Shown: one piece after another, positions 12,785 through 25,557 of the stretch
Layout: each line of letters starts with the position of its first letter
How positions within the stretch are numbered: position 1 is the stretch's first letter
NCBI GenBank assembly: GCA_963727815.1
Contig: CAVSGV010000005.1
Span: 101,348-165,347, forward strand
DNA: 64,000 nucleotides
Direction: 5' to 3'
Origin: an uncultured bacterium
Lineage (GTDB): Bacteria; Margulisbacteria; WOR-1; CAVSGV01
Notes under the pieces: generated by a model
Told to the model about the DNA's origin: nothing
The model's database searches: none
What the model saw: the letters and a program-made list of their open reading frames with translations, nothing else
Program-made: the position numbers and the translations under genes

Positions 12785-14035
12785 ATGGCTGATGACATGA
12801 CAACGTCGGGCGGAAGCCTGCATCCGGGAAGGCCTGTAATATGGCCTACCGGAAAACCTACCTCCACGTCACAAACACAACAGACATCGGCGCAAACACA
12901 GACCCAGGCCGCTCAACAGGCCGCGAAGGCGGCTCAATCACCGCAGGAAGTCGCGCAGATAAAAGCTGCGGCCCAGGCCATTGAAAGAGGGCAGCAGTCC
13001 AGACAGTATACGCAGGCCGACATAGCTGAACTTCTGGTCTCGCAGAACATAGCCGACACCGAAACGAACAGGAACATGGCGACGCTGATGCTGCGCTACG
13101 GGGTCGAGATATCCAGTTCCAATTTCTCCATGCTTTCTTCCATGGTTGGCGGCGACACGAGCCAGACAATGCTGGAAGCCGGAGTTCTTCTTCTCATGAA
13201 AGGCGTCGACTTTCCTGCCGCAGCCAAGACTCTGGGCAAGTTCCTGGCGGAGAATCCGCAGCTTGCTTCGCAGATCATTTCCCTGAAAGGCAACGTCACC
13301 GATCTTCTTGCGGCATTGTCCATGGGACAGAACATCATGAGCCCGCAGCTGATATCACAGCTTGCCGGCGTGCTTGCGCAGTTCAACGAGGAAATGGACG
13401 GCCTGCCGAGCAAATATAAATTTTCCGGCAAAGGTTCGGCGGGAAGAGCGGACCTCTCCAGCAATGTCAGGGCGCTAAAGGCGCTGCTGGACGGCATTCC
13501 CGAGAAAAAGAACCTGCCCGACAGCGCGGAAGGACAGATAATCGAATCCACTCTCAACGCGACATCGAACAGGCTGGACCAGGTGGAGCAGAATCTTGTC
13601 GCGCAGGCCATGCTGTCAAAACAATCATCGCGGCCCGACGTGAATTATTCCTACTATCAGATCCCGAACGCCCAGGTCAAGCCGCCCACTACAGTGGACA
13701 TGATAATCAAGAGGAGCGAAAAGGAAGGCGGAAAGAAGATCGACCCGAACGATACCACCATCATCATGTCGTTCGAGACGCTTAACATGGGACGGATAGC
13801 GGTAAAGATGACGGTAAAGGACAAGAACATCGAATTCCTTTTCAACACCAACAACGATGAGATCAAATCTCTTGTGGCATCCAACTCGAAGGACCTTGCG
13901 AAGGCGCTGTCCGATAAAGATTTCAACGCTTCAAAGATGCAGGTCACGGTCAACCCGTCCATGTGCGCGATCAAACCGTTCCTCATCCCGTTCCTCGGCA
14001 TAGAGGACCTGATGAAGATAGACGTGGACGCATGA
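12785..14035 (+). CDS. FliK-like hook/needle length-control protein
   Basis: Gln/Thr-rich N-terminus; C-terminal T3S4-like domain (IIMSFETLNMGRIAVKMTVKDKNIEFLF...LAKAL); coupled to a FlhB-C-like gene. Confidence 0.7.
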   Translation: MADDMTTSGGSLHPGRPVIWPTGKPTSTSQTQQTSAQTQTQAAQQAAKAAQSPQEVAQIKAAAQAIERGQQSRQYTQADIAELLVSQNIADTETNRNMATLMLRYGVEISSSNFSMLSSMVGGDTSQTMLEAGVLLLMKGVDFPAAAKTLGKFLAENPQLASQIISLKGNVTDLLAALSMGQNIMSPQLISQLAGVLAQFNEEMDGLPSKYKFSGKGSAGRADLSSNVRALKALLDGIPEKKNLPDSAEGQIIESTLNATSNRLDQVEQNLVAQAMLSKQSSRPDVNYSYYQIPNAQVKPPTTVDMIIKRSEKEGGKKIDPNDTTIIMSFETLNMGRIAVKMTVKDKNIEFLFNTNNDEIKSLVASNSKDLAKALSDKDFNASKMQVTVNPSMCAIKPFLIPFLGIEDLMKIDVDA

Positions 14036-14358
14036 TGGCAGAAAAAGAAAAACAACCTCAACCACGGAGGACCGCTGTCGCAGTGCGGTACGACGTGGAG
14101 ATGGACAAAGCCCCACTCATTTTGGCTTCCGGACGCGGAGCGATCGCCGACGAAATACTCCGTGTCGCGGAGGAGAACAAGATACCTCTTTACGAGAACA
14201 GAGACCTTGCCACGATGCTGGCAAAACTTGAGATCGACACGGAGATCCCCGCGCAGCTTTACGTTCTTGTCGCCGAAGTCCTCTTCTTTGTTTACAAGCT
14301 GGACAAGATGGCGGAGAAGCGCGAAAAGCTGATGAAAAGAGCTCGAGAAGAACGATAA
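14032..14358 (+). CDS. Stand-alone FlhB C-terminal-like (EscU/YscU/YlqH-type) protein
   Basis: AVAVRYD....AP.ILASGRG.IADEI...AEENKIPLYEN..LA..L.KLEID.EIP..LY..VAEVL. Confidence 0.9.
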   Translation: MMAEKEKQPQPRRTAVAVRYDVEMDKAPLILASGRGAIADEILRVAEENKIPLYENRDLATMLAKLEIDTEIPAQLYVLVAEVLFFVYKLDKMAEKREKLMKRAREER

Positions 14359-14404
14359 CACTTAACCACGATCATGTCTTTACCTTAACGATAGGATGTT
14401 TTCT

Positions 14405-14600
14405 CGCGAATAATTATTCGTATGCTTTAGTGGTTTCGCGAATTACGCGAATATCAAGAACTCGAATCCGCCAATCTGCGCGAATTTACACGAATGAACA
14501 CGAATTGATCTGAGATCGCGAAGATCAGCGTAAATTTGAGAATATTCGAGCGATCAGGGAACTGGTAATTCGAGTTATTCGAGAAGTATCAATTCGAGAG
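14405..14600. repeat. Array of short cgaat repeats facing an array of attcg repeats
   Basis: About six (c/a)(g/a)cgaat units on the left and four attcgag units on the right; palindrome cgaataattattcg at 14407-14420. Confidence 0.75.
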
Positions 14601-14611
14601 GTTAAAACCTC

Positions 14612-14640
14612 TTGATTTTTCCCGTAATTTTGCCTATAAT
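14612..14640 (+). promoter_or_regulatory. Sigma70-type promoter for flgF operon
   Basis: TTGATT-17 nt-TATAAT upstream of SD aggag and ATG 14676. Confidence 0.8.
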
Positions 14641-14675
14641 CCTTATAAAAGGTCTGTCGATTAGGAGCTGATAAA

Positions 14676-15410
14676 ATGGTTGATAAGATCCTCGAAGTCG
14701 GAGGTGCGGGGATTGAAGGAGCGGACGCAAAAGTCAAGGCTCTTATGAACAACGTTGTTAACTCCGAGACGCCTGGATACAGGAAATCAGATGTTGTCAT
14801 TAAAGCCTTTCCTACCTATTTGGAACAAGCACAGGTCAGATCCAGCACATCGGTACCCCAGATCGAAGGCGTACACTACGATCAAACTCCGGGAACTCTT
14901 CTAAGGACGGGAAACAATCTTGACGTTGCCATAGGCGGCGAAGGATTTTTTGCCGTTCAAACGCCGCAGGGCGAAAGATACACAAGGGACGGCCGATTTG
15001 TGCTGGACCAGAACGGCAGGCTCCTTTCTGTGGCGGGCGATTATCCTGTCATGGGACTTGGCGGACCGATAATGGTCCAGCCGGGAGACAAGATAGAATT
15101 CACGAACGAGGGGAAGGTTATGGTCAACGGCCAGGAAATGAACACTCTCAAGGTGGTCAATTTTAATGACACATCATCTCTTCTGCCAGTTACCGGCGCT
15201 CTTTTCAAAGCGGATGACAATGCGCAGATCGCCATCAATGACGCGCCGAGGATCGTGAGCGGATACGTGGAGGCTTCGAATTCCAACGTTATCGAAGAAA
15301 CGATGAACCTTATTTATCTTAACAGGCTGTACCAGACCAACGCAAAGGTAGTAACCAGCAGGGAAACAATGTTCACGCGCGCGCTCGACATGGGCCGGAC
15401 GGCGCAATAA
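14676..15410 (+). CDS. flgF: Flagellar rod protein FlgF
   Basis: NNVVNSETPGYRK, TGNNLDVAIGGEGFFAV, RYTRDGRF, GYVEASNSN; precedes flgG. Confidence 0.88.
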   Translation: MVDKILEVGGAGIEGADAKVKALMNNVVNSETPGYRKSDVVIKAFPTYLEQAQVRSSTSVPQIEGVHYDQTPGTLLRTGNNLDVAIGGEGFFAVQTPQGERYTRDGRFVLDQNGRLLSVAGDYPVMGLGGPIMVQPGDKIEFTNEGKVMVNGQEMNTLKVVNFNDTSSLLPVTGALFKADDNAQIAINDAPRIVSGYVEASNSNVIEETMNLIYLNRLYQTNAKVVTSRETMFTRALDMGRTAQ

Positions 15411-15426
15411 TAAAGGAGGAGTAATC

Positions 15427-16230
15427 ATGTTCGAACCGCTTTATGTAGCAGCTTCAGGACTGAACGTGCTTCAGGACGAGATGGTGGACATCACGAACAA
15501 CCTTGCCAATGCGAAAACGGTGGCTTTCAAGAAAGGCCGCACCGAAAAGGAGAGCCTCTTTACGATCGAGAAAACATTCTCTTCGGAACTGAGGGACCAG
15601 ATGGCCGCTCAGGGCGTAACGCCGCCATTCGGCGCGAATGAATACGGAACAGGCGTGCGCATAGCCGCGACCCCGAAAGATTTCTCTCAGGGGACAATGG
15701 AAATAACCAACAATCCGCTCGACCTCGCGATAGAGGGCGACGGATTTTTCCAGTTCAAGATGCCGGACGAGAGCTTTGCTTACAGCAGAGCTGGCAATCT
15801 GCACATCGACAATGAAGGCGCTCTGGTTGATCCGAACGGCAACAGGCTCGATCCCGCAATAACCATTCCGCAGGGAGCTACAAAGGTATTGATAAAACAG
15901 GACGGCACGGTCTCGGTCACTCTGAATAACAGCAGCGAAATGCAGGACGTGGGACAGATCCCAATTATCAGGTTCAATAATACGGAAGGACTGCGGAGCC
16001 TGGGCCAGAACATGTACAAGGATACTCCGTCTTCGGGCGACCCGATATACGGAACGGCCAACACGGAAGGCTTCGGGTCGATAAACCAGTACTCCCTTGA
16101 AAGCTCGAACGTGGACGTGATCTCGGAAATGATGCGCATGGTAATGGTCCAGCGTATATTCGACACGGTATCAAAAGCGGTGCAGAGCTACGATGGCATG
16201 CTCTCTTCCGTGAACAGCATGAAGCAATAG
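15427..16230 (+). CDS. flgG: Flagellar distal rod protein FlgG
   Basis: NNLANAKTVAFKK, G.GVR, TNNPLDLAIEGDGFFQ, YSRAG, LESSNVDVISEM. Confidence 0.92.
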   Translation: MFEPLYVAASGLNVLQDEMVDITNNLANAKTVAFKKGRTEKESLFTIEKTFSSELRDQMAAQGVTPPFGANEYGTGVRIAATPKDFSQGTMEITNNPLDLAIEGDGFFQFKMPDESFAYSRAGNLHIDNEGALVDPNGNRLDPAITIPQGATKVLIKQDGTVSVTLNNSSEMQDVGQIPIIRFNNTEGLRSLGQNMYKDTPSSGDPIYGTANTEGFGSINQYSLESSNVDVISEMMRMVMVQRIFDTVSKAVQSYDGMLSSVNSMKQ

Positions 16231-16253
16231 AAAGAACAGCGGAAGGATGAACG

Positions 16254-16982
16254 ATGAAGCTTAATAAACTTATAATATCCTTGATGGTGCTGGCGGCGGT
16301 CTTTTCTTCCTCCGCTTATGCCGTTACCGTCAAGAATGACATCTCCAGCAGGATAACGAGCGCGATAATCCGATATCTTGTAAGCAAGGATGCTTCTTAT
16401 GAGGGCAAGAGGATCGAAGTAGAATACAAATACGCGGACAAGACATTCAATTCCCTGAAGGGCAGGAGCGGTACCGTGACCTTCGTGGTCGCGGAGTTGT
16501 ATCCGGATTTCAAACCGATAGGCAACATAATAATCCCCATACAGGTAGTGGTGGACGGCGAACCGAAAGAAAAATTGTTCATCAGGACAAAGGTGTCGGT
16601 ATATGACAATATCGTCATAGCTACAAAGCGCCTGAAGAGAGGCGACATAATAGGCACTACGGAAGCGGCCGTGCAGGTAAGGGACATTGCCACCTTGAAT
16701 TCGCAGGCCATAAAGGACATAAATATCGTTCTCGGGAAAGAAGCAAAGACTTTCATACCGATGGACAATCCGATTTACGAATACATGATCAAGGAAAAAC
16801 CCCTGATAAAGAAGAACGATGCGGTCACCATAAAGGCTTTCAATGATGACATCTCGGTGGAGGCCGACGGCATTGCGCTGGAGGACGGCCTGATGGGAGC
16901 GCAAATAAGAGTGAGGAATTCCCGCTCGGGGAAAGAGGTCATCGCGGTCATAACGGGCACGGGCGAGGTGACGGTAAAATGA
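16254..16982 (+). CDS. flgA: P-ring formation chaperone FlgA
   Basis: Signal peptide, SAF-like domain, G.ALEDG.MG.QIRVRNS.SGK.V.A. Confidence 0.88.
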
Positions 16983-17320
16983 TGAGGACAATGCTGAAGT
17001 CGAAACTTCACCGGCTGACGGTCACCGATACGAACGTGGACTACGCCGGCAGCATAACCATAGACAGGGCGCTTATCAAGGCGGCGGACATCCTGCCTGG
17101 CGAAAAGGTCCAGGTGGTGGACGTCAATAACGGCGCCAGGTTCGAGACATATGTGATAGAAGGCCGCGGAGGGGAAGTTTGCGTGAACGGCGCCGCGGCA
17201 AGACTGGCGAACAAGGGCGACAAGGTCATCGTGATAGCTTATGCGTTAGTCGACGACAAAGAAGCAAAAAAGCTGAAACCGAAGATCGTTCTCGTCAACG
17301 AAAGGAACAAGAAAAGATGA
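16979..17320 (+). CDS. panD: Aspartate 1-decarboxylase
   Basis: [38 protein letters not shown]...GDKVIV. Confidence 0.95.
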
Positions 17321-17950
17321 AGGCAAAATGTAAAATGAAAAGTGCAAATATGTTGTGCGCTACACGCGTCATAATAATGTTCCTCCTTATTTTTTCATTT
17401 TTCATTTTAAATTTTTCATTTGCTTTTGCGGATTCCATCTGGACCAGACTCAAGCACGTCGCCTTATTCGGTAAGCAAGTCTTTCAAAGTGGGGGATGTC
17501 GTTACGGTCCTGATAAATGAATCCACTTCAGCTGTGACGAAAGGCGAGACGGACACGAACGCGAACGATTCACTGGGGCTTGCTTTCAGTTCAAGCCTGG
17601 CTTCTTTTTATCATCCCAGCAAGAACGTTACCGGATCTGGCGGAAGCACTTATAAAGGCTCTGGCTCCACGACCAGGAGCAACAGCGTTACGGCAAAGGT
17701 TGCGTCCGTCGTCATAAAGGTGATGGCCAACGGGAATCTTTACATCGAGGGCGATCACAAAGTGGAAGTTAACGGCGAAACTCAGACGATATCGATATCC
17801 GGCATCATAAGACCGAAGGACGTAAGCCTTCAGAACACGATATTCTCTTATCAGGTGGCTGACGCGCAGGTTTCGGTGAAGGGGAAGGGAGTGGTCGGGG
17901 ACGCGGAAAATCCGGGATGGTTCACCCGCTTCTTCAACTGGATATTCTAA
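17317..17950 (+). CDS. flgH: Flagellar L-ring protein FlgH (frameshift near 17446; SPase I-type signal, no lipobox)
   Basis: AFA-DSIW then [57 protein letters not shown]. Confidence 0.9.
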
Positions 17951-18990
17951 TGGGAAATTTTAAATTTAAAATGAAAAGTGCAAAGTTGATGAGCGCTTCG
18001 CGCGTCATTATAATGTCTTTCCTTATTTTTTCATTTTTCCTTTTTAACTTTGCATTTGCCGCATCGCCGGCAGTAAGGCTTAAGGACATAGCGCACGTTC
18101 TGGAAGCCAGGGACAACCAGCTTATGGGATTCGGGCTCGTGGTGGGACTTAAGAACACGGGCGACACCATCCAGACCGGATTCACCAGGCAGGCGTTGAC
18201 AAATCTTCTCTCCAGAATGGGCATCGCTCCGCAGGACCAGGAATTCAAATCCCGCAACGTCGCGGCCGTAATGGTCACCGCGAAACTGCCTCCTTATGTT
18301 AGGGCAGGACAGAAGATCGATGTTACTGTATCTTCTCTCGGCGACGCGACATCGCTGATGGGAGGAACTCTCCTCATGACGCCGCTTCAGGGACCCGATG
18401 ACAACGTTTACGCTGTTGCGCAGGGGCCGGTCGCGCTGGGTATTTCGACAAGCGACATGGACGTTTCCGTCGTGGTGGAGAAAAGACAGACCGACGTCGG
18501 CCGCATAACAGGCGGCGGCATAGTTGAAAAAGACGTTCCTGTTTCCGTCGGCGACAATTTTATTTCCATAGTGCTGGATAATCCCGATTACACGACCGCA
18601 ACAAGGATCGTGAGCGCGATGAACGATGCCGGGATCTCCGCGAGGGCGAGGGACGCGGCAACCATCGTCGCGTCCATGGATTCTTCGGGAGACCAGGTGG
18701 CTTTCATTGCACGGGTCGAGAACCTCAGCATTGTTCCGGATACTGTGGCGAAGATCGTTATAAACGAACAGACAGGGGTCATCGTGATGGGAGAGAACGT
18801 GAGGATAGCCCCCGTGGCAGTTTCTCTTAGCGGCACAAATGTCACCGTCTCCACAATTGCGGGGGGCGCGACAATGTCTGATCTGGTCTCTTCGCTTAAC
18901 GCGATAGGCGTAAAGCCAGCCGACCTTGTGGCGATAATCCAGGCAATAAAATCTTCGGGCGCAATATCGGCAGACATAGAGGTGATGTGA
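17950..18990 (+). CDS. flgI: Flagellar P-ring protein FlgI
   Basis: RLKDIA...RDNQL.GFGLVVGL..TGD, NVAAVMVTA.LP, VSSLGDATSL.GG.LLMTPL.GPD..VYA.AQG. Confidence 0.93.
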   Translation: MGNFKFKMKSAKLMSASRVIIMSFLIFSFFLFNFAFAASPAVRLKDIAHVLEARDNQLMGFGLVVGLKNTGDTIQTGFTRQALTNLLSRMGIAPQDQEFKSRNVAAVMVTAKLPPYVRAGQKIDVTVSSLGDATSLMGGTLLMTPLQGPDDNVYAVAQGPVALGISTSDMDVSVVVEKRQTDVGRITGGGIVEKDVPVSVGDNFISIVLDNPDYTTATRIVSAMNDAGISARARDAATIVASMDSSGDQVAFIARVENLSIVPDTVAKIVINEQTGVIVMGENVRIAPVAVSLSGTNVTVSTIAGGATMSDLVSSLNAIGVKPADLVAIIQAIKSSGAISADIEVM

Positions 18991-19271
18991 TGGAACAGAT
19001 AACAGGAATAGATCCGCTTTACGCTATCGGCTCCAACATAAGCGTCAACAATAATGTGCGCACAAAGGCTGACGCGCAAAAGGAATTCGCGTCGGTTTTC
19101 GTGGCCCAGATATTGAAAGAGGTCTACAAGGGGCAGAGCGAGATGTTCGGCGAGGAAGGAAGCCTGGGGCTTTTTTCCGACAACCTTTATAACGATATCA
19201 TGATGTCCAAGATATCCAGCGAGATAGCTGGCGACAAATCGTTCGGATTTGAGAAATTGTTGATGCAATGA
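18987..19271 (+). CDS. Small FlgJ N-terminal (rod-binding)-like protein
   Basis: KEFASVFVAQILKEV..LFSDNLYND..SKISSE, GFEKLL; directly after flgI; no muramidase domain. Confidence 0.7.
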   Translation: MMEQITGIDPLYAIGSNISVNNNVRTKADAQKEFASVFVAQILKEVYKGQSEMFGEEGSLGLFSDNLYNDIMMSKISSEIAGDKSFGFEKLLMQ

Positions 19272-20013
19272 TGGCATTAAAGAAAAAAACAATGAAACCG
19301 ATAAAGACCGAAGAGGACATGCCGATAAAGATGGCGGAAATGTACATGCCCCTGGTGCATTCCATCGCGTCCATCGTTTCCAGCAAGGGTCTTCCTCCCA
19401 GCATAGATTACAACGACCTAGTGGCCGACGGCACCGTGGGGCTGATGAAGGCGTGGAAAAGTTTTGATAAGAACAGAGGAGTGAAGTTCGAGACGTACGC
19501 TTCTTACAGGATAAGGGGGGAGATACTCGACGGCCTGAAGAATTACAACCCGGTCCCTTACAGGGTCCAGGTAATGATAAGGGATGTTGCCAAGAACGGC
19601 TATTCCGCTCTCACAAAAAAAGGAGCAAAGGGAAAGGAAGAAGAGAGAAGTCATACGAAAAGAAAGAGATATCCGAAGAAGATTTCAAGAAAGCCGTAAC
19701 AAAGATAAGGAAGATAGTCTCCGCCTCCGCGCTCATGTATCTCATGTCGCTTGAATCCGCGCAGGATTCCGGCATGGAAATAAACGTGTCCGCCGAAAAA
19801 ACTCCCGCCGAAGAATTGGAATTCTCGGAACTGAGGTCCAGGCTCAAGAAGTCGCTGTCCGATCTTCCCGATACGGACCAGAGGGTCATAAGCCTTTTCT
19901 TTGACCAGGACCTTAGCCAGAAGGAGATCGCGTCCAAGCTGAAACTTTCCAGGAGCAAGGTCAACAGGATAATCGGCAAGACGGTGGTGTTCTTAAGGGA
20001 GAAGCTGAAGTAG
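19268..20013 (+). CDS. fliA: FliA/WhiG-like sigma factor (frameshift near 19650)
   Basis: Region 2 DLVADGTVGL.KAW..FD..RGVKFETYASYRIRGEILD; region 4 L..L....QRVISLFF..DLSQKEIA.KL.LSRSKV. Frames join as ...EEKKSYEKKEISEEDFKKAV... Confidence 0.8.
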
Positions 20014-20015
20014 CC

Positions 20016-20330
20016 ATGAGCGAACAACAGGTGCAAAGGGTCCAGCTTTTCGACGACACGTTCAATCATCTGAACGACGCGCTGGACCAGTCGACAAAGA
20101 TACAGGCCGTCATCGCGCAGAACATCGCGAACGCGAAAACGCCAGGGTATGAAGCGCTTGAATTCGACAAGGTCCTGAACAAAGCGGTGAAGAGGGCGAA
20201 CAAGAACGTCGTGTTCGAAGAAGAAATGGACTCGCTTTCAAGGAACGCCATAGAGCATGCCGCATACGTGAAGCTGATAGCGGAGAAGATAGCGGTCATA
20301 AGGACAGTAGTGACGCAGGGAAGGAAGTGA
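20016..20330 (+). CDS. flgB: Flagellar proximal rod protein FlgB (short)
   Basis: IAQNIANAKTPGY, EEEM..L..NAI; first gene of the flgB-flgC-fliE block. Confidence 0.85.
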   Translation: MSEQQVQRVQLFDDTFNHLNDALDQSTKIQAVIAQNIANAKTPGYEALEFDKVLNKAVKRANKNVVFEEEMDSLSRNAIEHAAYVKLIAEKIAVIRTVVTQGRK

Positions 20331-20335
20331 TCTGA

Positions 20336-20761
20336 ATGGGACTTAACGACGCATTGGACATAAGCGTTGACGGGATCAACGCGAACCGGATATTCATGGA
20401 GGTCATCGCCAGCAATCTTGCGAACATAAACACGACCAGGACCGTTCAGGGAGGCCCGTACCGCAGGAAGATACCAGTACTTGCGGAAAAACCGATGGAA
20501 TTTTCGGAGGTGCTGAGCAACGCGCAGAAGTCGGCGGGCGGCGTCCAGGTCGCGGAGATAAAGGACGACGACTCTCCGTTCCAGATGGTGTTCAATCCCG
20601 GACATCCTGACGCGGACAAGAACGGCTATGTTAAGCTGCCGAACGTGTCGATGGCCAAGGAAATGGTGGACATGGTCGAAGTGTCCAAACTGTACGAAGC
20701 GAACATCGTTGCCTATAACGCCACAAGAAAAATGGCGCAGGACGTGCTTACGATCCAGTAG
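20336..20761 (+). CDS. flgC: Flagellar proximal rod protein FlgC
   Basis: IASNLANINTTR...GGPYRRK, PGHPDAD.NGYV.LPNV, YEAN. Confidence 0.95.
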   Translation: MGLNDALDISVDGINANRIFMEVIASNLANINTTRTVQGGPYRRKIPVLAEKPMEFSEVLSNAQKSAGGVQVAEIKDDDSPFQMVFNPGHPDADKNGYVKLPNVSMAKEMVDMVEVSKLYEANIVAYNATRKMAQDVLTIQ

Positions 20762-20796
20762 GAAGTTCCAAAAATGATCAGGGAGGGAAATGAACA

Positions 20797-21123
20797 ATGG
20801 TGAATCCGCCGATCCAGCCGATATTACTATCAGCGGTGGAAGATGTTGCCGCGCCGAAAGCAGCTCCGGCTCCCGTTTCAACCACGGACCCGTCGGGGAA
20901 CGTTTTTGATCAGGTGCTGGGCAAAGCGATCGACGCGCTTAACGGGGTCTCACAAACGGAATTCACGGCTGACAAGCTGATGGATGATTACATCGCGGGC
21001 AAAGCTGAACTCTCTGACGTCATGATCGCGACATCAAAAATGACCATCGCGGTCAACCTGGCCGTATCAACGATAACTTCGGCCGTAAGCTCGTTCAAAG
21101 AAATTACGTCAATGTCAATATAG
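20797..21123 (+). CDS. fliE: Hook-basal body protein FliE
   Basis: F..VLGKAID.LN.V, G...LSDVMIA.SK; synteny. Confidence 0.8.
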   Translation: MVNPPIQPILLSAVEDVAAPKAAPAPVSTTDPSGNVFDQVLGKAIDALNGVSQTEFTADKLMDDYIAGKAELSDVMIATSKMTIAVNLAVSTITSAVSSFKEITSMSI

Positions 21124-21147
21124 GCGCTCTAGAAGGAAAGGAATAAA

Positions 21148-22528
21148 GTGGCAGAACCAACACCACAGCCCCAGGGAAGACAAATAGCGATTATAGCGAC
21201 CGTTGCCATGGTCATTTTTTTCACTTTATTCCTTGTCGGGCTCAGATCATGTTCATCTTCTTCCGATAAAGGTCCGACAGGCGAGAAGCTTCCGGCCGAT
21301 GTCGCCATATATTCCAACCTGGATCTGAAGGATTCCGCGATGGTTATCACCCGCCTAAAGGAACTGAAGATCCCTTATCAGATAAAGGACGAGGGCCGCA
21401 CGGTAGCGGTGCCGAGGGGAAGGGCCGACGAAGCGCGGCTGGGGCTCGCGGAAAAGAACCTTCCGGCGGGCGGGACCGTTGGCTGGGAGATATTCGACCA
21501 GTCAAAACTGGGAGCGACAGATTTTGACAGAAGGATCCAGTTCATCCGCGCCATTTCCGGCGAGCTTTCAAGGACCATAGACAGGATAAGCTCGGTGGAA
21601 GACGCGCGCGTACAGATAGTCATTCCCGAAACCCAGCTTTTCCAGGCGACCACCGCTCCGGTGACGGCATCAGTGCTCCTCAAGCTGAAAACCGGGGAGA
21701 CGCTGTCTCAGGGCCAGGTGAACGGCATAGTCTATCTGGTCGCGAACAGCGTTGAGAACCTGAAGCCGGCGAACGTGACCATCATCGACACGAACGGCAC
21801 GATTCTTACGGGAGCGGAAACCCCGCAAAAAGAGATCGTCCAGGCGCCGCCCGAGAACCGGCTCGTAGAACAACCTGAAGAACAGGTGGTCGTGAAACCG
21901 GAAGAAAAATCTGTCCTGGAAGTCCAGACAAAACTGGAGCTGGAGGACAAACTCACAAATAAAGTACAGTCGCTTCTCAATAAGCTCTATCCTCCGAACA
22001 TAACTATCGCTAGGGTCAACGTCGAACTCGCTGAACGGCAAAAAGATAACCGTCGTTATCCTGCTTGATAACAACTTCAGGCTGACCAACGCGCTCAAGA
22101 GGTCCACTTTCGATACGGTATCCGCCGCCATAGGATACGACAAGGACAGAGGGGATAAGATAATATTAAAGAGCGTCAAGTTCCGCTCCGCGGGAACCGC
22201 GCAGACCTATGCGAAGACTGGGATGGCGCAGAGCATATTCACGATCCAGAATCTCAAGATAATTTACAGGAAAATGGGCAGACATTCCGCATATGTCATC
22301 GCGGCGATAGTTGTCATCTTCTTCTTCATGCTCATTTCAATGTTCAGGGGAGGCAGGAAGGAAACTCCATTGGAGGCAGCCGGCGAGCCCGAAACGCCTG
22401 AAGAGGTGATGGAGACCAGCACAGGAGAAGTACCGATCGTCTCTGAAATGAAGACCCTTGCGGCGCAAAACCCGCAGCAGGTGGCGAACCTCATAAAGGA
22501 CTGGGTCGAAGAAGGAGGGGGCTCTTGA
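21148..22528 (+). CDS. fliF: MS-ring protein FliF, collarless form (frameshift near 22030)
   Basis: TM1; RBM1-2 (GWEIFDQSKLGATDF, ALSGELSRTI-like, ARV.IVIP..LF, ASV.LKL); compact RBM3 (..VSAAIGYDKDRGDKI); TM2; C-terminal NPQQVANLIKDWV. Confidence 0.88.
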
Positions 22529-23025
22529 ACGGGATAGAAAAATCGGCGGCCATCCTCTCTCTGCTCGGTGACGAGCTGTCGCACAAGATACTCGGCTACC
22601 TTCCGGAATCCGACGCTATCTCCATAATAAACGCTTCGGAGAACCTGAAGACGCCCACAAGGGAAACTCTTCTTGAGATCGTGTCGGAGTTCAACAATTA
22701 CATGTCCAATCCCGAGAACATGCCGTCCGAAGCAGCGACTTCCGGCGAGGGCGAAGAAGCATCCGCTCTGCCAGCGAACACGCCTCTGGAGATGATCACA
22801 GCGGCTTCACCGGAGAACCTGACAAAAGCTCTTCAGGAGGAGAGGCCGGAGATCGCCGCTTACGTTCTGTCCCATCTTCCCGTGGAAAAAATATATGAAG
22901 TGCTGCAGATGCTCGGCGACATGAGGGGCGCCGTAGAATCCAGGCTGATATCCATAAAAGACGTGCCAATGGCGAAGGAGCTTGAGGAAAAAGTGCTCAA
23001 CACGATATCCGCGAGGCTTTCCTGA
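22525..23025 (+). CDS. fliG: Truncated FliG (N and middle domains only)
   Basis: EKSAAILSLLG.E, EIVSEF, L.EERPEIAAYVLSHLP, RL..I..V. Stop overlaps the fliH start (TGATG). Confidence 0.82.
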   Translation: MNGIEKSAAILSLLGDELSHKILGYLPESDAISIINASENLKTPTRETLLEIVSEFNNYMSNPENMPSEAATSGEGEEASALPANTPLEMITAASPENLTKALQEERPEIAAYVLSHLPVEKIYEVLQMLGDMRGAVESRLISIKDVPMAKELEEKVLNTISARLS

Positions 23026-23759
23026 TGGGATTGATCAAAAAAGGAAGTTTCATCGACAAAGGCATACTTCTTCTCAAAGAAGAAGCCCGGGCCGTCGAGA
23101 TAAAGCCGGAAGTCATCGAAGAACCCGCCAAAGAAGACATAATACCCGAGGAGTTCCTGGAAGCGCACGCCGGTGAAGGCAAGGAAGAGCTCGTAGGGTA
23201 CGCGAAGAACGAGGCTGAGGACATAATCCGCAAGGCGATGAATGAAGCGAACTCAATAAGAGAGCAGGCAAAAGAATCCGGACTTGAGGAAGCCCGCGCG
23301 TTCGCGGAGGAGAACGCCTCCGACAAAGTAAAGGAAGCGCTGCAGACGCTCAACGAGGCGGTCATTGAGAGGAAAAAGATCATCAAGGACGCGGAAGCCG
23401 AAATATTGAGGCTCTCGCTGAAGGTCGCGGAACAGGTCATAAAATCCGAGGTCTCTCTTCACAGGGACGTAACGCTCAACATAGTTTCGGACGCCATAAG
23501 CCGCGTAAGCGACCGCGAACAGGTCATAATACGCGTCAACAGGGATGACGTCGACAACGTTAAGAAATACAAGGACAGGATAGGCAGCGTTGTTGACGGC
23601 ATCAAGAGCCTCTCCATCGTCGAGGATGCCAGCGTCGAACCCGGCGGCTGCGTCATAGAGACGAACCTCGGATACGTTGACGCGAGGATCTCCACCAAGC
23701 TGACCGCCATTGAAGAAGCCTTCCGAAAGGTCACCGCCGGCGGCGGCGCGAGCAAGTAA
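23025..23759 (+). CDS. fliH: FliH/SctL-type ATPase stator
   Basis: GLIKK N-terminus, A...G repeats, IRVN..D, VEPGGCVIETNLGYVDARI.T.L. Confidence 0.9.
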   Translation: MGLIKKGSFIDKGILLLKEEARAVEIKPEVIEEPAKEDIIPEEFLEAHAGEGKEELVGYAKNEAEDIIRKAMNEANSIREQAKESGLEEARAFAEENASDKVKEALQTLNEAVIERKKIIKDAEAEILRLSLKVAEQVIKSEVSLHRDVTLNIVSDAISRVSDREQVIIRVNRDDVDNVKKYKDRIGSVVDGIKSLSIVEDASVEPGGCVIETNLGYVDARISTKLTAIEEAFRKVTAGGGASK

Positions 23760-25073
23760 ATGTCCGAGCTCGATCTTGAAAAATACAGCCGCGCTATAGA
23801 GCATGTCGACCTGGTCAAGGTCATCGGCAAGGTCATACAGGTAGTGGGGCTCATCATAGAAGCCCAGGTCCAGGGGGTAAGCATAGGCGATCTCTGCTCC
23901 ATAAGACTGGGAAAAGAGGAGCACGAAACATTTGCGGAGGTCGTGGGTTTCCGCGAAGGAAGGGTGCTTCTCATGCCTCTCGGAACTACTTCTGGAATTT
24001 CTCCGGGCAGCCAGGTGACAGCGGCGGGACATCCTTTAAAAGTAAAAGTGGGTCCCAGGCTTTTGGGACGCGTCCTTGGCGGTCTCGGCGAGCCCATAGA
24101 TGACAAAGGCCCGATAATATTCGACACCGAAAATTCTCTTGATGCTGACCCGCCCGATCCCGTGAAAAGACCCAGGGTCACCGAAGTTCTGCGCGTCGGG
24201 ATACGCGCCATCGACGGGCTTCTTACCTGCGGCAGGGGACAGCGCATCGGTATATTTGCCGGGTCCGGCGTGGGCAAGAGCACCCTCATGGGTATGATCG
24301 CGAGGAACGCGGAAGCGGATGTTAACGTTATATCGCTGATAGGTGAGCGCGGAAGGGAAGTGCGCGACTTCATCGAGGAATCTCTCGGCGATGAGGGACT
24401 GAAAAAATCCGTCGTAGTCGTCGCCACCAGCGACCAGCCGCCGCTCATACGTCTCAAAGGCGCTTTCGTCGGCACGTCAATCGCCGAATATTTCAGGAAC
24501 AAGGGTCTGAAGGTGATATTGATGATGGATTCAGTTACGAGGTTCGCCATGGCGCAGAGAGAGATCGGGCTTGCCACCGGAGAGCCGCCTACCACTAGAG
24601 GCTACACGCCGTCGGTCTTTGCTCTGCTTCCCAAACTGATGGAAAGATCGGGAACTGCTGAAGTGGGTTCGATCACCGCTTTTTATACGATCCTTGTCGA
24701 AGGCGACGACTTCAACGAGCCGATAGCCGACCAATCACGGTCAATTCTTGACGGGCACATAATACTTTCCAGGGACCTCGCGGCAAAGAACCATTATCCA
24801 GCCATAAATGTTCCGCAGAGCGTAAGCAGGTTGATGACCAACTTGGTTTCCGACGAGCACAAGGAAGCTGCGGCGAAACTCAGAGAAGTTTTAGCCAGAT
24901 ATTCGGAAGCTGAAGATCTCATCAATATCGGCGCTTACGTCAAGGGCAGCAACCCGAAGATCGATTACGCCATAAGCAAGATAGATGAAGTGAATGAATT
25001 CCTGAAACAGGGAACGTTCGAGCAGACCGATTACGAGGAAACGGTCGAGCGTCTTCTAAGTATATTTTATTAA
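23760..25073 (+). CDS. fliI: Type III export ATPase FliI
   Basis: GQRIGIFAGSGVGKS, IGERGREV, MDSVTRFAMAQREIGL, SILDGHIILSR. Confidence 0.96.
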   Translation: MSELDLEKYSRAIEHVDLVKVIGKVIQVVGLIIEAQVQGVSIGDLCSIRLGKEEHETFAEVVGFREGRVLLMPLGTTSGISPGSQVTAAGHPLKVKVGPRLLGRVLGGLGEPIDDKGPIIFDTENSLDADPPDPVKRPRVTEVLRVGIRAIDGLLTCGRGQRIGIFAGSGVGKSTLMGMIARNAEADVNVISLIGERGREVRDFIEESLGDEGLKKSVVVVATSDQPPLIRLKGAFVGTSIAEYFRNKGLKVILMMDSVTRFAMAQREIGLATGEPPTTRGYTPSVFALLPKLMERSGTAEVGSITAFYTILVEGDDFNEPIADQSRSILDGHIILSRDLAAKNHYPAINVPQSVSRLMTNLVSDEHKEAAAKLREVLARYSEAEDLINIGAYVKGSNPKIDYAISKIDEVNEFLKQGTFEQTDYEETVERLLSIFY

Positions 25074-25089
25074 AAGGAGTTAAGCGAGA

Positions 25090-25557
25090 ATGCCAAGAGA
25101 ACAGAAACCGGGAAAATTCCAGTATCCTCTTGAGGCGGTCCTGAAGGTGAGGGCTATAAAAGAAAAAAAGGAGAGGGAGAGGTTCGCCGACAAGCAGAAA
25201 GCCTACATGACCGAGAAGGAAAAAGAAGAACAGATGGAAGAGGACAAAAGAGAAAAGGAAGGCGAGCTAAAGAGCATCATCAAGAAGGGCCCCATAACTC
25301 AGTTCGAAAAAGTTCTTAGGCGCCACGCGCATCTTGGCGTCCTCAAAAAAGACATCGACAATCAGATAGAAAAGGTAATAGACGCGTCAAAAAAACTCGA
25401 GGACCAGAGGGCGAAACTTGTGGAGTCCATGAAGGACCGCAAGATAATCGAAAAGAACAAGGAACACAAGCTGGATGAATACGATAAAATGATGAAAGAT
25501 CTTGAGATAAAATTCCTTGACGAGATCGCCACGGAGAGATTTAAGCGGGGGCTTTAG
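25090..25557 (+). CDS. fliJ: FliJ-type export chaperone/stalk
   Basis: [12 protein letters not shown], coiled coil, LDEIA; follows fliI. Confidence 0.8.

Follow-up and report, generated by a model that had tools for sequence, protein, structure and literature searches.

The window, i.e., the whole stretch of 64,000 nucleotides analyzed here, comes from an uncultivated Saganbacteria (WOR-1) genome, and probably holds one locus of a conserved flagellum-type type III export apparatus ("System A") whose genes are divided between two loci. The apparatus would be non-rotary and span the cell envelope, and it is found throughout the Margulisiibacteriota. The encoded machine comprises a collarless FliF MS ring, a FliOPQR-FlhB-FlhA gate, a FliH/I/J ATPase complex, and a reduced cytoplasmic ring, in which FliM and FliN accompany a FliG consisting of just the N and M domains, together with a rod (FliE and FlgB/C/F/G) and the P and L rings (FlgI and FlgH) with their FlgA chaperone. 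The distal end is encoded as a hook-like protein and a FlgD-like partner, and FliA-like sigma factors, two FliK rulers, and an additional switch protein of the FlhB-C type complete the set. Given that no filament, stator, or torque-receiving part is present, this would therefore probably be a non-rotating export machine rather than a propeller.

The genes of the cluster, which all lie on the + strand, were identified by Pfam and NCBIfam profile searches, and these bore out the coherent set of flagellum-type genes described in the initial annotation, with most of the junctions either overlapping by 1–4 nt or separated by gaps of <36 nt. The cluster opens with the first of the two FliK-like hook/rod-length control proteins of the genome (12785..14035; Flg_hook, E=2e-8; 70% identity in the relative G004; dN/dS 0.06), followed by a stand-alone FlhB C-terminal-domain protein (14032..14358; FlhX/YlqH-like), which starts after the NPTH cleavage site, matches Bac_export_2 at HMM positions 258–335 only, and is conserved beside fliK in the relatives. 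The proximal rod protein FlgF (14676..15410; LlgE_F_G_D1 and Flg_bbr_C), the distal rod protein FlgG (15427..16230; Flg_bb_rod, D1, and Flg_bbr_C), and the P-ring assembly chaperone FlgA (16254..16982; ChapFlgA, E=1e-28) precede the L-ring protein FlgH (17317..17950; FlgH, E=2e-47), which lacks the lipobox Cys, and the P-ring protein FlgI (17917..18990; FlgI, E=2e-98).

A conserved 94-aa ORF at the position of flgJ (18987..19271; 73% identity in G004; dN/dS 0.10) has no Pfam or NCBIfam match, which leaves its earlier "FlgJ-like" designation without HMM support. It is followed by the gene for a FliA/WhiG-like sigma factor (19268..20013), which is read as two ORFs, one with Sigma70_r2 and the other with r4, the orthologue in G004 being a single ORF of 245 aa. 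The proximal rod proteins FlgB (20016..20330; Flg_bb_rod) and FlgC (20336..20761; Flg_bb_rod and Flg_bbr_C), FliE (20797..21123; FliE, E=3e-12), FliF (21148..22528; YscJ_FliF), and a short FliG (22525..23025; FliG_N and FliG_M) lead to the ATPase regulator FliH (23025..23759; FliH, E=2e-20), the export ATPase FliI (23760..25073), and FliJ (25090..25557; FliJ, E=5e-7). FliI, with 92% identity in G004 and a dN/dS of 0.03, scores 670.6 bits against TIGR03497 (FliI_clade2; cut-off 629.8) and is thus a bona fide flagellar FliI, in agreement with the intact ATPase signature noted previously.

One non-structural gene, panD (aspartate decarboxylase; 16979..17320; Asp_decarbox, E=9e-49), is embedded in the operon, and has the identical placement in G004, G123, G134, and one Logan contig. 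Both panD and the FliA-like sigma factor had been omitted from the initial annotation.

The genes for the hook, junction, flagellin, FliM/N, MotAB, and the gate are indeed lacking from the window, although the absence of the gate, FliM/N, and hook genes is a property of the window only, as these are present elsewhere in the genome, at a second locus (C3:~364.9-375.0 kb). This locus contains the export gate (FliOPQR, FlhB, and FlhA), FliM, FliN, a short hook-like distal axial protein of 280 aa without the D2 domain, a FlgD-like protein, and the second FliK. Only five axial proteins are encoded in the genome, which has two FliK-type rulers and more than one FliA-like sigma factor, one of them adjoined by a conserved small ORF.

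The short FliG, of 166 aa, has the FliF-binding N domain and the FliM-binding M domain (with the EERPE motif), and lacks the C-terminal torque domain, just as had been proposed, with a clean boundary that is conserved class-wide. It aligns to residues 5–151 of a 333-aa FliG (hhalign), and its AF2 model (pLDDT 84) has structural matches to FliG_N and FliG_M, with the N domain superposing on the FliG_N of the FliF_C:FliG_N complex (5tdy_D, rmsd 1.5) and the M domain on the FliG_M of FliM complexes (4qrm_D, rmsd 1.6). An assembly artefact was ruled out, given that the short form is present in 60 of the 65 Saganbacteria genomes, with fliH invariably the next gene. As the surfaces that bind FliF and FliM are kept, the protein would therefore be an export sorting-platform adaptor and not a rotor, retaining just what may be needed to hang FliM/FliN, and hence FliH/I, beneath the FliF ring.

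The fliF gene is a single gene whose frame is broken at a CAAAAAG run near 22035, and it is read as 306 aa plus a downstream ORF of 101 aa, which carries TM2 and the FliG-binding C-terminus. The domain order is TM1, RBM1, RBM2, linker, RBM3 without a beta-collar, TM2, and the FliG-binding C-terminus. As approximately 30 of the 36 loci in relatives have an intact single ORF of 471–548 aa, the truncated 306-aa protein was rejected as a real form, and of the short, collarless FliF of the initial annotation, only the lack of the collar stands, the collar being absent or vestigial even in the intact orthologues. The span from beta1 to beta2 of RBM3 is 25–54 aa in the class (AF2 model and alignment), in comparison with roughly 125 in Salmonella, a value estimated here from alignment and the published RBM3/collar boundaries.

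The split fliF, flgH, sigma factor, fliR, flhB, and flhA genes of this assembly might also be taken for the pseudogenes of a decaying, non-functional relic of an ancestral flagellum, all the more so since the genome is small, which may indicate that reduction is under way, and since the gate locus has 8 frame changes where 1.4 are expected from the genome background (P about 9e-5). In flgH, the signal peptide lies in a different frame (frameshift near 17425, by frame comparison with G004), and the sigma factor gene is frameshifted near 19640–19700. On the other hand, frame changes occur genome-wide at ~0.13 per kb of conserved coding sequence (0.134 in random orthologues), with 13 of about 150 orthologues, housekeeping ones among them, also frameshifted, and FlhA has 82–87% identity to G004 over the main aligned blocks, with stretches at 100%. 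Because of this background rate and the high identity of FlhA, the splits in FliF, FlgH, the sigma factor, FlhA, FlhB, and FliR are most likely sequencing errors rather than decay. Judged from substitution patterns (dN 0.06–0.35 with saturated dS; dN/dS ≤0.12 where computable, far under 1), the genes of the cluster are under purifying selection. Together with the 92% identity of FliI, the intact ORFs of the relatives (FliF at ~30/36 loci, FliG in 60/65 genomes, and FlgI in 136 of the 146 Margulisiibacteriota genomes), and the retention of the system alongside a working flagellum in other classes, this makes a relic highly improbable here, and the idea is largely refuted at the class level.

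A genome-wide check for full-length fliG, motAB, and flagellin found none, and on these points the initial annotation is not refuted. Six-frame searches detected neither FliG_C nor the MotB plug in this genome, nor in two complete relatives assembled as single contigs (G004 and G012), and both are absent from the whole family of this genome and from 61 of the 65 Saganbacteria, all of the genomes compared being MAGs or SAGs. Flagellin was likewise not found in this genome, G004, or G012, and no FlgK/L-type axial protein was found in this genome.

The machine could still be a rotary motility organelle if its filament and its torque and stator parts were too divergent to be recognized, or if FliG_C were supplied in trans. 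The hook-like, FlgD-like, and FliK genes, like the bushings formed by the L/P rings, typically belong to a flagellum that rotates, and a membrane-anchored FliF-RBM3::FliG_M-C protein, together with MotA and MotB, is found in four Saganbacteria (G014, G017, G026, and G032) and in some 55 further Margulisiibacteriota genomes, lying in G014 inside the second (gate) locus of System A. In view of this fusion protein and its placement in G014, the ancestral machine may have been rotary, with FliG_C provided in trans. However, the fusion, MotA, and MotB of G014 have no tblastn match in the present genome, where neither a sixth axial protein nor a flagellin-like protein was found, and given also the six-frame results, rotation is quite unlikely here.

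The non-rotating export apparatus preferred here is not a lineage-specific conversion, as had been suggested, and this part of the initial annotation is rejected in favor of a phylum-wide paralogous system, which one clade has in addition to a canonical flagellum. In this clade, System A and the canonical flagellum lie side by side, with two FlgI and two FlhA, and the flagellated Margulisbacteria G123 and G134 each have their basal-body and gate genes in two paralogous sets. System A retains an unchanged synteny, a collarless FliF, and a FliG of 181 aa in these genomes, and System B has a FliG of 333 aa and a flagellin. The presence of both suggests that System A is independent of swimming. 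A published supplementary note describing other Margulisbacteria as "motile by polar flagella" (PMC6349859) counts against the reading of System A as a non-rotary machine.

System A would be assembled in the manner of a flagellar hook-basal body that a flagellar stator could not turn, with the L and P rings providing the passage through the outer membrane and peptidoglycan. The product would probably be an export conduit that spans the envelope without rotating and terminates at the surface in a short stub; after the FliK/FlhB switch, this conduit would export putative cargo. We infer this conduit from which parts have been kept and which have been lost. The non-rotary, flagellum-derived nature proposed in the initial annotation is upheld by the searches for FliG_C, MotB, and flagellin, and its role in secretion or contact stays putative, with no cargo identified. 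The hook gene, the FlgD-like gene, and the two FliK rulers are odd in a pure secretion pore, and count against this reading.

A structural or signaling envelope complex (such as an anchor, a point of contact between cells, or a sensor of envelope integrity), exporting only for its own assembly and without a secreted cargo, is a minor possibility. No effector-like or chaperone genes were recognized in either locus, and the dedicated sigma factors and the conserved small ORF beside one of them are suggestive of an assembly-coupled regulatory checkpoint, but a full ATPase complex, two rulers, and a substrate-switch paralogue would be costly for self-assembly alone, and a contact or sensing role has no positive support.

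System A, understood as a candidate export conduit, shares its families and part order with the canonical flagellum (the hook-basal body of Salmonella/E. coli), including FliF/G/M/N, FliOPQR, FlhA/B, FliH/I/J, FliE, FlgB/C/F/G, FlgA/H/I, FliK, a FliA-like sigma factor, and a FliI of flagellar clade 2. It differs in having neither flagellin, FlgK/L, MotAB, the FliG C domain, nor the FliF beta-collar, in its 280-aa hook protein without D2, and in being a paralogue of the true flagellum in related classes. The filament-less basal bodies of Buchnera aphidicola reportedly keep the flagellar T3SS, rod, and rings without flagellin, and are said to have been proposed for protein export. The Buchnera set is a recent reduction of the sole, canonical flagellum of an endosymbiont, with a full-length FliG apparently kept, whereas System A is ancient and phylum-wide, with a remodeled FliG and FliF, and runs parallel to a canonical flagellum in some relatives. 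In the known dual flagellar systems (the polar and lateral flagella of Vibrio/Aeromonas, Flag-2, and the fla1/fla2 of Rhodobacter), both sets build rotating, filament-bearing flagella. G123 and G134 similarly have two complete paralogous basal-body and gate sets per genome, but one set lacks a filament, a stator, and a torque domain.

"Half motors" appear in genome surveys (Mapping the loss of flagellar motility, ISME J 2025; PMC12199754). In the table of Matheus Carnevali et al. 2019 (Supplementary Data 2; PMC6349859), most of the genome columns, taken here as Saganbacteria, list FlhA, FlhB, FliF, FlgI, and FlgG as present and FliG, FliM, FliC, and FlgL as absent. Neither source reports the coexistence with a canonical flagellum, the second locus, or the short form of FliG and the missing collar of FliF, and neither reads the set as a distinct machine.

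Finally, the injectisome (NF-T3SS) is also a flagellum-derived export machine that has given up rotation, with the cytoplasmic ring acting as a sorting platform (Abby and Rocha 2012, PMC3459982), and it has a secretin in place of the L/P rings, a lost FliG, an MS ring split into SctJ/SctD, and a needle and translocon (PMC3459982). System A, by contrast, keeps the L/P rings, the rod proteins, and the FliG adaptor, and its ATPase scores best as FliI.

The block at window:12785-25557 was found, through the listing of its open reading frames (ORFs) and searches with Pfam and NCBIfam models, to be a tightly packed and co-directional set of genes. FliK-like, FlhB C-domain-only, FlgF, FlgG, FlgA, PanD, FlgH and FlgI proteins are followed by a 94-aa ORF, a FliA-like sigma factor, and FlgB, FlgC, FliE, FliF, FliG, FliH, FliI and FliJ, with junctions that are mainly overlaps of 1-4 nt or gaps of fewer than 36 nt. 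The block has housekeeping neighbours, PBP2 and L25 upstream and RecG downstream, in a Saganbacteria genome of 1.68 Mb in 6 contigs, in which the window takes up C5:101348-165347, and it encodes the rod and the MS, P and L rings (FliE, FlgB, FlgC, FlgF, FlgG, FliF, FlgI, FlgH and FlgA). The ATPase FliI was placed relative to the flagellar and injectisome types by its NCBIfam equivalog scores, and reached 670.6 bits against a cut-off of 629.8 for flagellar FliI clade 2 (TIGR03497), with a SctN score below that of clade 2. The 94-aa ORF matches no family, and no HMM was found to back it as the FlgJ rod cap. Strict matches to the sigma-28 consensus promoter number five genome-wide, one of them within the sigma gene itself and none of them informative on late substrates.

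Some genes of this region present features of their own. The panD gene (aspartate decarboxylase) lies between flgA and flgH at window:16979-17320, and is found in the same place at loci L022, L119, L121 and L123 and in System A of distant members of the phylum, and is absent from it in several other Saganbacteria families (L061, L067 and L076). The signal peptide of FlgH is of the ordinary kind (…FA(F/Y)A|DSIW), without a lipobox cysteine (window:17317-17440 and L022:10400-10560), and this L-ring protein is probably not a lipoprotein. The Pfam model of FlgI (window:17917-18990) is matched as two segments, 1-265 and 300-343, throughout its own family (G000-G004), which implies that about 35 model positions were deleted in this family specifically. 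Just upstream of fliK, at window:12268-12645, there is a 120-aa ORF with no family match.

The initial annotation had described the export gate, FliM/FliN and the hook as absent from the window, which is true of the window only, given that a second locus of the same genome, L020 (contig C3:~364.9-375.0 kb), supplies the gate and FliM/FliN genes and a hook-like one, and the proposal that the gate genes are absent was therefore rejected. This locus opens with a second FliK and continues with a FlgD-like protein, a hook-like protein of 280 aa, FliM, FliN, FliO, FliP, FliQ, FliR, FlhB, FlhA and two small conserved ORFs, and it closes with a second FliA/ECF-like sigma factor. By Pfam, FliPQR, FlhA, FlhB and FliH/I/J of the flagellar type are all encoded, at L020 or in the window, the FliK domain is clear, and FliM (393 aa) carries a FliMN_C domain. 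The hook-like protein belongs to the FlgE/F/G subfamily and falls under every equivalog cut-off, the FlgD-like protein is a weak match (E=1e-3 only), and no HMM support as FlgM or chaperones was found for the small ORFs 3' of flhA. The window cluster and L020 are referred to together here as System A.

The FliG of the window ends cleanly at residue 166, where its TGA overlaps the ATG of fliH, and consists of the Pfam FliG_N and FliG_M domains; in hhalign it covers positions 5-151 of a FliG of 333 aa that is encoded elsewhere in the phylum. The C-terminal domain with the charged torque helix is absent, as had been proposed, and the same short form, a frame of 150-215 aa directly abutting fliH, is present in 60 of the 65 Saganbacteria genomes. 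In the AlphaFold2 (AF2) model (pLDDT 84), a disordered linker joins an N domain of four helices to an ARM-like M domain. The N domain superposes on the FliG_N of a FliF_C:FliG_N complex (5tdy_D) with an rmsd of 1.5 over 61 columns, and the M domain on the FliG_M of FliM complexes (4qrm_D) with an rmsd of 1.6. The EHPQR-type FliM-binding motif takes the form EERPE here, and ERPQ in the consensus of the class. When named genomes were scanned with a short-FliG profile, 36 loci were recovered, titled Candidatus Saganbacteria, candidate division WOR-1 or Candidatus Margulisiibacteriota. Among 1.84 billion representative proteins, a profile search returned some 55-60 clusters of 150-190 aa ahead of the canonical FliGs of 325-345 aa; the sampled contexts of these short proteins share the synteny of the window. 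One ORF of 643 aa spans both FliF and the short FliG at L083:4633-6561 (also G053:C40), either as a natural fusion of the two or through the lack of a stop codon in that assembly.

FliF itself had been read as a short protein, which was not borne out. In this assembly it is split into a 306-aa ORF and a separate 101-aa ORF in a different frame, the latter with a TM helix and a C-terminus ending ...NPQQVANLIKDWV, and the frame changes at a CAAAAAG run near window position 22035. As FliF is a single ORF of 471-548 aa ending at the start of fliG in G004, a relative of the same family with a complete genome, and in the loci of about 30 complete named relatives, the short form is a frameshift, and its interpretation as a SctJ-like protein was rejected.

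The absence of the FliF beta-collar, on the other hand, was upheld, given that the span of RBM3 is short even in the intact orthologues. The AF2 model of one of these, from locus L061 (pLDDT 75), comprises TM1, RBM1, RBM2, a disordered linker, RBM3 with a short hairpin only, TM2 and C-terminal helices, and its best Foldseek matches are FliF. According to this model and the alignment, RBM1-3, the two TM helices and the FliG-binding C-terminus are all present, and the C-terminal motif EPEKVANLLKQWL, the orthologue of the NPQQVANLIKDWV of the window's FliF, lines up with the end of Salmonella FliF to which FliG binds, DNDPRVVALVIRQWM (phmmer, 6scn_A). The Pfam YscJ_FliF_C match is confined to HMM positions 76-147, and residues 338-382 of the L061 protein fall on residues 396-441 of Salmonella FliF in phmmer. 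From beta1 to beta2 of RBM3 there are 25-54 aa in 30 orthologues, with about 6 extra residues in the family of the window, against about 125 aa in Salmonella, as estimated from the phmmer alignment and the published RBM3/collar boundaries. By this estimate, a collar of about 110 aa would be missing from the FliF of System A.

Frameshifts are not confined to fliF, since FlgH is split after its signal peptide in this assembly, the sigma factor is split too, and flhA, flhB and fliR are frameshifted here and intact in G004. The background rate was obtained by comparing 148 orthologues from 20 random regions of G004 with this genome, and 22 frame changes were counted in 164.5 kb (0.134 per kb), with 13 of about 150 genes broken, a rate with which the CheckM completeness of 70% for an assembly in 6 contigs is consistent. 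In the window cluster, 1.7 frame changes would be expected and 3 are seen, a difference without significance; in L020, about 8 are seen in about 10 kb where 1.4 would be expected (P ~9e-5). This excess falls in fliR, flhB and flhA (C3:369800-374000; L020:13893-17924), the products of which are highly conserved nonetheless, and it could represent either a local weakness of the assembly or very recent decay. FlhA retains 82-87% identity with that of G004 over the main aligned blocks, with long stretches of 100%. This favours sequencing errors, or events of very recent date, over decay, and the verdict that the frameshifts are artefacts rests on this protein conservation and on the genome-wide rate.

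Six-frame family searches of this genome and of the complete relatives G004 and G012 found no FliG_C, no MotB plug and no Flagellin_N, a model that would also catch FlgL. In this genome, the N- and C-terminal segment HMMs of the axial family recovered only FlgB, FlgC, FlgF, FlgG and the hook-like protein, and there is therefore no FlgK. When the genome was queried by tblastn with the MotA, MotB and FliG_MC proteins of a relative and with a canonical FliG, only the short FliG was returned. Of the genes whose presence elsewhere in the genome had been raised, full-length fliG, motAB and flagellin were not found in these searches. FliG_C and the MotB plug are likewise missing from 61 of the 65 Saganbacteria genomes, and Flagellin_N is without a match in 131 of the 146 Margulisiibacteriota, with flagellin present in the other 15. 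The sole match in Saganbacteria (L019:1402-2160; G022:C4), 253 aa long and with an N-terminus that resembles a signal peptide, was set aside; it has no homologue in the genome of the window.

A rotor/stator module does occur in some relatives. At the gate locus of the genome G014 (L023:3096-6020; G014:C24), three extra genes are found between murD and fliK, encoding a 480-aa protein (a signal/TM segment, a FliF-RBM3-like domain, a TM helix, FliG_M and FliG_C), MotA, and a LysM-type MotB, in that order. The module is absent from the genome of the window, which has an EamA transporter at this place (L020:7823-8665), and it is present in 4 of the 65 Saganbacteria and in most of the other non-flagellated Margulisbacteria. 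Across the phylum, FliG_C is found in 64 of the 146 genomes and the MotB plug in 59, all of which also have FliG_C, often in an adjacent position. In each of the flagellated genomes G128-G134, as many as 7 ORFs contain FliG_C (some of them 500-900 aa long) and as many as 8 the MotB plug, and together they make up many paralogous rotor/stator-like modules.

System A is widely conserved, with FlgI in 136 of the 146 genomes of the phylum. Between this genome and G004, dS is saturated, dN ranges from 0.06 to 0.35, and dN/dS, where computable, is 0.12 or lower, comparable to that of RecG. Only one clade (G122-G134) has both flagellin and a canonical FliG of 333-345 aa, and each of its genomes has two FlgI and two FlhA. 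In G123 and G134, the first set is syntenic with the window (panD, sigma factor, FliF, then FliH and FliI), with a FliI 67-72% identical to that of the window, and in G134 its FliK, FlhB-C, collarless 575-aa FliF and 181-aa FliG were seen directly. The second set is a canonical flagellar cluster, which shares a contig with the flagellin genes in G123 and has a FliI that is 58% identical. Given these two sets, the system of the window is not a recently degraded flagellum, and, judged from gene content and sequence identity, System A is a putative old paralogous apparatus, kept beside the real flagellum where one exists. The flagellum-derived, non-rotary set of the initial annotation is supported in part, its scope having been widened from one lineage to a second system across the phylum; the cluster, the short FliG and the missing collar stand, the short FliF does not, and the lack of gate, FliM/N and hook genes applies to the window only.

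Such an apparatus would presumably be assembled in the order of the flagellar hook-basal body, with the short FliG as the link from the FliF ring to FliM/FliN and, by way of FliH, to the ATPase, in the manner of a sorting-platform adaptor. The gate would export the rod proteins, FlgA, FlgI and FlgH would form the passage through the peptidoglycan and the outer membrane, and the FlgD-like and hook-like proteins would make a short distal stub. FliK, FlhB and the FlhB-C paralogue may then switch the substrate class. The lost parts (FliG_C, stators, beta-collar, filament and junction) would be those needed for rotation and propulsion, and the parts that are kept those needed for export and envelope passage.

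It is possible, as a tentative reading that we hold with less than even confidence, that System A is a third and ancient type III branch beside flagella and injectisomes, that is, a non-swimming, envelope-spanning exporter or contact device in which the rod and the L/P rings are kept, FliG is an adaptor and the FliF collar is lost, and which is maintained throughout the Margulisiibacteriota to serve a purpose of its own, also in cells with a true flagellum. If the non-swimming reading holds, System A would offer a natural parallel to the origin of the injectisome, with a basal body kept for a non-swimming use, its torque parts gone and its export parts kept. The phylum throughout which it is conserved is the sister group of the Cyanobacteria. 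System A would also sort the flagellar parts into those of export and envelope passage and those of rotation only (the FliG C domain, the FliF beta-collar and the stators), and provide a concrete target for cryo-ET and secretome studies. It also cautions against calling Margulisbacteria and Saganbacteria 'flagellated and motile' on the strength of gene counts of the KEGG type.

No paper describing System A was found in the literature searched. The main text of a 2019 paper on Margulisbacteria and Saganbacteria makes no mention of flagella (PMC6349859), and most genome columns of its Supplementary Data 2 show FlhA, FlhB, FliF, FlgI and FlgG as present, and FliG, FliM, FliC and FlgL as absent (PMC6349859). 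According to a 2025 survey, which does not mention this phylum, 11% of non-motile species have rotor proteins but no filament (PMC12199754).

Among the known systems, the bacterial flagellum shares with System A the gate, the ATPase, the rod and the MS, P and L rings, but has in addition the filament, the FlgK/FlgL junction, the FliG C domain and the MotA/MotB stator. The filament-less basal body of the Buchnera type is a recent reduction of a canonical flagellum, the only one of the organism, in which FliG and FliF keep their canonical form, whereas System A is phylum-wide, has a remodelled FliG and FliF, and stands beside a canonical flagellum in G122-G134. The injectisome, finally, has the secretin SctC, SctD, the needle SctF and a translocon, with neither rod nor L/P rings, in contrast to System A, the FliI of which scores higher as flagellar clade 2 than as SctN and which keeps both the rod and the L/P rings.
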